Positions 346 to 1,025 of a stretch of DNA of 64,000 nucleotides are shown here, one piece after another. The DNA comes from Escherichia coli O157:H7. GTDB lineage: Bacteria; Pseudomonadota; Gammaproteobacteria; Enterobacterales; Enterobacteriaceae. Location of the stretch: assembly GCF_013167455.1 (NCBI RefSeq), contig NZ_CP038328.1; one strand, written 5' to 3'. The notes under the pieces were generated by a model, which had not been told where the DNA came from, did not search any database, and was given only the letters and a program-made list of their open reading frames with translations. Within the stretch, counting starts at the first letter, position 1. Every line of letters starts with the position of its first letter. Position numbers and translations under genes: made by a program.

Positions 346-1025
346 TCATGACTGTGCTGCAAAGCTCAGCGCGTCTTCCAGCGCCGCAAACGGATCCACC
401 TCCGGCTTATCCTCATCCTCGCCCCAGCAGAGCATGGCGTCCTTCAGTGCAACATTCATCCCCTGTGCCCCGAAAACCGCTTTCACGATCTGTGCATTAC
501 GGATATCCCCGCGCTCATCACCCAGCGGGGACACCCTGTCAAACTCCATCCACATCATCGCCTCGCTCGCACTCAGGCTGTGCCGCAGTTCGGATAAGGT
601 GCGCCCCAGACGGAGCGCAAGTCGCATCAGAAAGCGAATTTCCGGGCGGGCTACTTTTTTCTGGCCGACTCTGCATCAGCGATCAGTTCCAGTGCCTGAC
701 GCAGCAACCGGGCATGTACCGGACCATAGACGGCCAGCACCTGCTCACGGTCGTCCGGAGTGAACACCCGTTGCAGGTCAGTATCACACAGGACATCGCA
801 GAACAGCGTCACATCCGCTTCCAGGTTACGGCGGGTTTTCGCCACCACCGACAGGGTATCGTCATCCTCTCCATCACCATTGAGCACTTCCTGCCACAGA
901 TACCAGGCCTCTGCCGAAGGCTCCCGCAGCACCACGCTGACATTACCCCATTCCGGCACCTTCACCGTTTTATGACGAAACCCTGACAGTCTGGCCAGCG
1001 CCAGCGTTTTCAGATCCTTTTTCAT
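346..1025 (-). CDS. tail assembly chaperone GT-like fusion made by programmed -1 frameshift
   Basis: Slippery heptamer A_AAA_AAG immediately before the G stop (plus 654-660); the -1 frame continues without a stop into ORF 346..627 (…MRLALRLGRTLSELRHS…). Confidence 0.6.
651..1025 (-). CDS. tail assembly chaperone (lambda gpG-like)
   Basis: ORF 651..1073, start taken at MKKDLKTLALARLSG (ATG 1025); lies between major tail gene and tape measure; ends ...AGA AAA AAG TAG. Confidence 0.7.
   Translation of the reverse strand: MKKDLKTLALARLSGFRHKTVKVPEWGNVSVVLREPSAEAWYLWQEVLNGDGEDDDTLSVVAKTRRNLEADVTLFCDVLCDTDLQRVFTPDDREQVLAVYGPVHARLLRQALELIADAESARKK

Follow-up and report, generated by a model that had tools for sequence, protein, structure and literature searches.

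In phage lambda, the tail proteins G and GT both associate with the tape measure protein; through its T part, GT also binds the major tail protein (PMC5009743). The two are made in a ratio of roughly 30:1 (G:GT) through the slippery heptamer G_GGA_AAG, and both are needed for tail assembly and are missing from virions (PMC5009743). The G/GT literature cited in that source includes Levin, Hendrix and Casjens (1993) and Xu, Hendrix and Duda (2004, 2013, 2014).

A direct homologue of the locus analysed here is the tail assembly chaperone pair gp13/gp14 of phage HK97 (PDB 2ob9; Phage_TAC_1 plus Phage_tail_T), with ~60% identity over both frames. The HK97 record joins the pair from two pieces with the remark 'translated due to a -1 frameshift', as does the record of HK446, while the join of gp69/gp69' in Burkholderia phage Bcep176 is annotated 'lambda G equivalent' and 'lambda T equivalent'. 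Members of this family have also been assayed. Antonov et al. (2013; PMC3711429) described a GeneTack cluster of 41 fs-genes (862991913, 'Phage_TAC', 'phage tail assembly chaperone', HK97-protein-like) and tested two members in an E. coli GST-MBP reporter, whose readout pools ribosomal and transcriptional slippage, obtaining 6% and 7% frameshifting. The 6% insert is a G_GGA_AAG relative (section 24 and Table S2 of PMC3711429), and it resembles mEp390. The other, insert 15618692, gave FS 7 ± 0.79% in the E. coli reporter cassette (Table S2 of PMC3711429), and its printed 75 nt are an exact match to positions 680..606, minus strand, of the DNA described below.

The window, a 64,000-nucleotide stretch of Escherichia coli O157:H7 (contig NZ_CP038328.1), carries a G-like reading frame and a T-like extension on its minus strand. 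We propose, with a probability of roughly 0.93, that this locus represents the programmed -1 ribosomal frameshift known as G/GT, belonging to the lambda/HK97-type tail module of a lambdoid prophage of E. coli. A sequence-only reading had assigned the pair to the conserved G/GT mechanism of long-tailed phages and had taken it as confirmation of a tail module; protein families, gene order, homologues and the published reporter support the first assignment, and the place of the pair between the major tail and tape measure genes supports the second. The G/GT frameshift is itself already known, the family since 2004 and this exact sequence since 2013.

The G and T frames and the shift site

Standard decoding yields a G-like tail assembly chaperone of 124 aa (651..1025, minus strand), which begins at ATG 1025 and stops at TAG 653..651. 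The Pfam family Phage_TAC_1 (PF06222) covers the whole protein (1-124/124, E 1e-61, 206.7 bits against a cut-off of 25) and is the sole chaperone family matched by the G part in the Pfam search. G also matches the tail assembly chaperone profile phrog_344 (E 9e-47) and the solved chain of PDB 2ob9, 'Tail assembly chaperone' (E 4.5e-46), and RefSeq names it 'phage tail assembly chaperone'. In NCBIfam, no model matches G, T or GT.

The 3' end of the G frame reads GCC AGA AAA AAG TAG, so that A_AAA_AAG (660..654, minus strand) lies in the X_XXY_YYZ phase of G, with codons AAA at 659..657 and AAG at 656..654; this in-phase ending had been recognised from the sequence alone and is borne out on the minus strand. 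The zero-frame stop TAG (651..653, minus strand) follows directly 3' of the heptamer. A TGA at 678..676 (minus strand) blocks the -1 frame upstream; the frame is then open from 675 to 349, starting 22 nt before the G stop. A productive shift is therefore possible only within 675..651, and the heptamer is the sole slippery motif in this 22-nt shift window.

After a slip, the first codon would be GTA (654..652), giving the reading VARPEIRFLMRLALRLGR..., that is VARPEIRFL-MRLALRLGR..., over 102 codons to TGA 348..346. The early -1-frame stop named beforehand as grounds for rejecting the signal was looked for, and none occurs before that TGA. The frame does run into the 93-codon ORF as claimed, taking in all of 627..346 together with nine codons upstream of it. 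The predicted GT is thus 124 + 102 = 226 aa, and its junction, ...SARKKVARPEIR, and the tryptic peptide VARPEIR are not obtainable through initiation at ATG 627. Copies of AAAAAAG are common in the window (28, where shuffled sequence would give 13.2). The one at 660 alone joins a long upstream zero-frame ORF and an immediate zero-frame stop to a long -1 continuation; where the remaining copies have long '-1' continuations, these are merely another phase of an ordinary gene.

Translation and profile matches identify the -1-frame extension (346..654, minus strand; 102 codons plus TGA 348..346) as the T segment of GT. It opens with the linker VARPEIRFL, which lacks its own start codon, and continues into the 93-codon ORF (346..627, minus strand) that public records call 'phage tail assembly protein T' and that we take to be the C-terminal portion of GT. 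The extension matches the lambda T family Phage_tail_T (PF06223, 'Minor tail protein T') with E 6e-19 and 68.7 bits (cut-off 25.9), PF06223 scores spanning 67-69 bits. Its match to phrog_337 (E 4.5e-42) begins at segment residue 4, upstream of the ATG, and the 226-aa fusion aligns over residues 2-225 to positions 2-224 of the 224 in phrog_14766 (E 4e-86), across the junction.

Elements known to stimulate frameshifting were sought on both sides of the heptamer. The 20 nt before it (GCTGATGCAGAGTCGGCCAG) contain no SD-like element of the GGAG/AGGA/GAGG type. Downstream, a 94-nt fold is no better than shuffles (z = -0.66), an RNAalifold consensus built from 17 diverse relatives contains 0 pairs, and an Rfam search of 1..2000 at E up to 10 returned no frameshift element, only sub-threshold matches over terminator-like hairpins. 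The only clean hairpin downstream of the heptamer, GCGCUCCG/GGGCGC, was rejected as a stimulator: it starts ~35 nt past the heptamer and overlaps the conserved LALRLGR codons. The frameshift signal thus appears to be the heptamer alone, and the lack of a conserved RNA structure or SD-like stimulator fits a low, lambda-like efficiency. The likeness to E. coli dnaX drawn in the sequence-only reading accordingly holds for the heptamer and fails for the SD-like element and the downstream hairpin, neither of which is present.

Conservation of the site and of the -1 frame

Close relatives of the locus were taken from IMG/VR (80 loci, 56 distinct sequences). In 77 of the 80, G has 124 codons ending AAAAAAG TAG and the -1 extension has 102 codons, both frames being open. 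The three exceptions each differ in kind: L090 lacks one nucleotide of the A run (~1560-1570; AAAAAG), so that T can no longer be reached, L077 has one nucleotide added within T (~749-751), and L032 has a different, mosaic T C-terminus (beyond 1643). They could reflect decay, recombination or homopolymer sequencing errors. The heptamer and TAG show no variation among 53 unique close variants. In the same variants the T region varies at 47 sites; 25 of these are third positions of -1-frame codons, and 17 are synonymous when read in the -1 frame, compared with 2 and 4 for the other two frames. This -1-frame bias of the substitutions indicates that the T region is under protein-coding constraint in the -1 frame.

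More distant loci, 139 in number and gathered by two alignments, come from Enterobacteriaceae, Vibrio, Burkholderia and Bordetella, with G identity down to ~31-35%. The best T-homology match lies in the -1 frame of G in all 135 distant loci that have one, and the -1 extension measures 91-105 codons in the 132 complete loci. In all 132, which are not phylogenetically independent, the end of G bears an A-site motif, A_AAG or A_AAA, in the correct phase: G_GAA_AAG in 44, A_AAA_AAG in 42, A_GCA_AAG in 26, A_AAA_AAA in 12, G_GCA_AAG in six, and A_GAA_AAG and G_GGA_AAG in one each. Judged from these alignments, the conserved feature is a phase-specific tRNA re-pairing site, not homopolymer length. 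Across ten lineages the linker peptide is also kept in the -1 frame, as V-x-x-P-x-x-x-F-L-M, again without a start codon. A tblastn search with the fusion found 248 phage records, 198 of which cover at least 80% of it; among the full-coverage matches listed, every one is joined from two pieces, one per frame, and HK446, HK544 and HK633 match in two such pieces at 60% identity.

The position of the zero-frame stop varies with the type of site. Where the full heptamer is present the stop lies 0-33 nt away. In relatives that have lost the P-site half of the heptamer and retain only the tetramer A_AAG (A_GCA_AAG, G_GCA_AAG and A_GAA_AAG; L184-L189, L196, L199, L201-L225, L007 and L015), a zero-frame TAA directly adjoins the site in 33/33 complete loci, which represent at least three clades and are not phylogenetically independent. 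The stop abuts the heptamer in the window too, so termination might contribute to the signal. That the abutting stop in A_AAA_AAG_TAG is a working part of the signal and not an accident is a tentative suggestion from these alignments, which we consider doubtful. If true, termination kinetics or release-factor availability would tune the G:GT ratio in part of this family.

Proposed decoding and its alternatives

Most ribosomes would translate from ATG 1025 to TAG 653..651 and release the 124-aa G. A minority would slip back one base with tRNA-Lys on AAA in the P site and on AAG in the A site of A_AAA_AAG, the slipped tRNAs re-pairing with AAA AAA in a tandem slippage like that of dnaX, without the dnaX enhancers. 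Going by the reporter with the exact window sequence, this minority would amount to ~7%. The shifted ribosomes would read on to TGA 348..346, producing the 226-aa GT with its lambda-T-type C-terminal domain. By analogy with lambda, the pair would serve tail assembly, G and the G portion of GT covering the tape measure protein and the T portion bringing in the major tail protein. A fixed rate of shifting would supply the G:GT ratio on which assembly depends.

Two other routes to a T-containing protein have to be weighed against ribosomal frameshifting. T might be a separate gene translated from ATG 627, its overlap with G incidental or concerned only with translational coupling. RefSeq and the phage records do annotate a stand-alone 93-aa T, this protein is found on at least 1000 contigs, and an ATG at the 627 position is conserved in most relatives. 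That codon, however, specifies the conserved internal Met of the motif F-L-M-x-L-A-L-R, and the nine residues before it are themselves conserved in the -1 frame without any start codon. No purine-rich SD was found in the 12 nt before ATG 627 (TTCGCTTTCTG), unlike the tape measure start, which is preceded by GGAGAAAGGTGA. The phrog_337 and phrog_14766 alignments cross the linker, Bcep176-type relatives show L-E-M at the position of the supposed start and their annotators joined the frames, and the reporter gave the fusion at 7%. Lambda T, moreover, is reportedly made solely as GT (Levin, Hendrix and Casjens 1993, cited in PMC5009743). A separate T gene is thus very improbable. Just as improbable is transcriptional slippage, in which RNA polymerase would add one A within the A run to give the same ...RKKVARP... 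fusion. An extra A in AGAAAAAAG does encode a protein identical to that of a -1 ribosomal slip, GST-MBP reporters read both routes alike, and some relatives have longer runs (8 A in Evi; A_AAA_AAA types in Burkholderia). Yet for polymerase slippage to be efficient in E. coli, a run of about 8-9 A or more is required, and the run in the window has just 6. Other relatives keep a phase-specific A_AAG with 3-4 A (G_GGA_AAG, G_GAA_AAG and A_GCA_AAG), runs too short to support polymerase slippage, and the G_GGA_AAG cassette still gave 6%; the trait that is conserved is the potential for in-phase tRNA re-pairing.

A further alternative accepts the frameshift signal as real by descent and supposes it to be idle, the prophage copy being silent or decaying so that nothing is made. 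A near-identical copy does lie in a prophage of NZ_CP023673 with truncated terminase genes and pseudogene calls, the close relatives include the A-run deletion of L090 and the T insertion of L077, and E. coli genomes may hold up to seven copies of the segment. In the window, on the other hand, G, heptamer and T are all intact, the genes for head, tail and lysis follow the order of intact Stx-type phages (97.8% identity) and the terminase region is not deleted, while 77 of the 80 close relatives retain both open frames. An idle copy is unlikely, though less so than the two preceding alternatives, and it touches only the expression state of the element and not its identity.

Prophage setting, annotation and comparison with known systems

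The gene upstream of G encodes a major tail protein with an Ig-like C-terminal domain (1040..1756, minus strand; phrog_158, E 2.8e-117; RefSeq 'major tail subunit'). Pfam assigns this protein to Ig_3/Ig_2/I-set and gives weak matches to Phage_TTP/Phage_tail_2. Downstream of T lies the start of the tape measure gene, which runs off the window (1..298, minus strand; phrog_339/3519, E 2e-35); in a near-identical locus the gene is 3243 nt long and is named 'phage tail tape measure protein' by RefSeq. The order is therefore major tail, G, T, tape measure, followed in the near-identical E. coli locus by M/L/K/I/J-like tail genes.

A terminator-like hairpin, recognised from its sequence, separates the GT stop from the start of the tape measure gene; in it AACCGC-TGAG-GCGGTT is followed by a T run (317..337, minus strand). 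A terminator scan did not list the hairpin (337..322), probably because extension of the stem consumed the T run. An Rfam match to isrK at 317..384 is sub-threshold (27.1 bits against a gathering score of 50). A second terminator-like hairpin stands upstream of the major tail gene (1779-1793, minus strand), also with a weak isrK match (18.2 bits against 50). In HK97, putative terminators are annotated upstream of the major tail gene and to both sides of the moron between GT and the tape measure gene.

The window carries ~35 kb of lambdoid prophage followed by chromosomal genes. The portion coding for head, tail and lysis has 97.8% identity to Stx2a_WGPS2/1447 and is collinear with intact Stx-type phages. 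NZ_CP023673 is 100% identical to the window over 300..1100 only; it diverges elsewhere, and the two have nothing in common beyond ~18 kb. Signal-peptide and motif patterns detected no stx genes, and 14300..17700 contains no toxin-subunit-like ORF of at least 80 aa. Three tRNA genes at 17066-17918 (Arg-tct, Arg-tcg and one with a cat anticodon called Met) lie where Stx phages have argO/argN/ileZ, a position that in those phages is just upstream of stx. The only large ORFs near these tRNAs encode a 167-aa protein (17569..17066), located where the annotation of a related genome has a TerB-family pseudogene, and a SASA-type esterase (16493..14643).

Several observations concern the head genes. The portal ORF (5874..4510, minus strand; Phage_portal, E 2e-79) ends AGA AAA TGA and shares an ATGA overlap with a 407-aa ORF (4513..3290) lying in its -1 frame, such that a slip on A_AAA by the stop would give a ...RK-MTERE... 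portal fusion. Ordinary translational coupling is the simpler reading of this overlap. PGAP treats the pair in NZ_CP023673 as one 'frameshifted' portal pseudogene, and the phage records give two 'portal protein' CDS. The 407-aa ORF has no Pfam family above threshold and contains 3.3 tandem copies of a 162-nt (54-aa) unit with 97% identity (3756-4288 of the window); 25-mers shared with a related prophage in this region are displaced by ±162 and ±324, which the repeats alone may explain. The 645-aa 'major capsid protein' (6089-8023, minus strand) combines an N-terminal Peptidase_S78 prohead protease and a C-terminal Phage_capsid domain in a single ORF.

The segment 300..1100 is 100% identical to that of E. 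coli SMN013SH2. Of 5426 complete E. coli genomes, 1245 contain it at 90% identity or above, in as many as seven copies, and it turns up in 92 phage records, mainly of long-tailed Stx-converting phages (YYZ-2008, 2851 and WGPS types). All of the records that were opened keep two CDS apart, naming one a chaperone and the other, of 93 aa, 'tail assembly protein T' or 'tail protein'; none joins them. The exact 226-aa fusion is absent from a set of ~15 billion proteins in which G and the 93-aa T each occur on at least 1000 contigs. One 94-aa member of the T protein cluster (P0018) is named 'preprotein translocase subunit SecA' on 73 contigs, an evident propagated error. The practical value of the finding is in annotation: gene callers and RefSeq split the locus and start a stand-alone T at an internal Met. 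Once recognised, the frameshift site also anchors the prophage tail module of major tail, G/GT and tape measure genes.

Among known systems, E. coli dnaX shares the A_AAA_AAG heptamer and the -1 direction. It reaches about 50% with an upstream SD-like element and a downstream hairpin, whereas the window site shows 7% in the reporter without either. The shifted product of dnaX is the shorter one, whereas that of the window is the longer. Lambda G/GT has the same mechanism and gene order, a T domain in the same Pfam family (PF06223), and a similarly low efficiency with no strong stimulator evident. It differs in its heptamer, G_GGA_AAG, and in its proportions, with G:GT at ~30:1 against 7% in the reporter for the window sequence; lambda G is also filed under a different Pfam family from Phage_TAC_1. 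With HK97 the window shares the slot between the major tail and tape measure genes, the -1 relation of T and the F-L-M-x-L-A-L-R start of the T domain. The HK97 heptamer is G_GAA_AAG where the window has A_AAA_AAG, HK97 G runs five codons beyond the shift site whereas the G of the window meets TAG at once, and in HK97 a moron, gp15, together with terminators, separates GT from the tape measure gene, where the window has only the terminator-like hairpin. Between the Phage_TAC cassette of Antonov et al., assayed in the reporter, and the window site there is no sequence difference.
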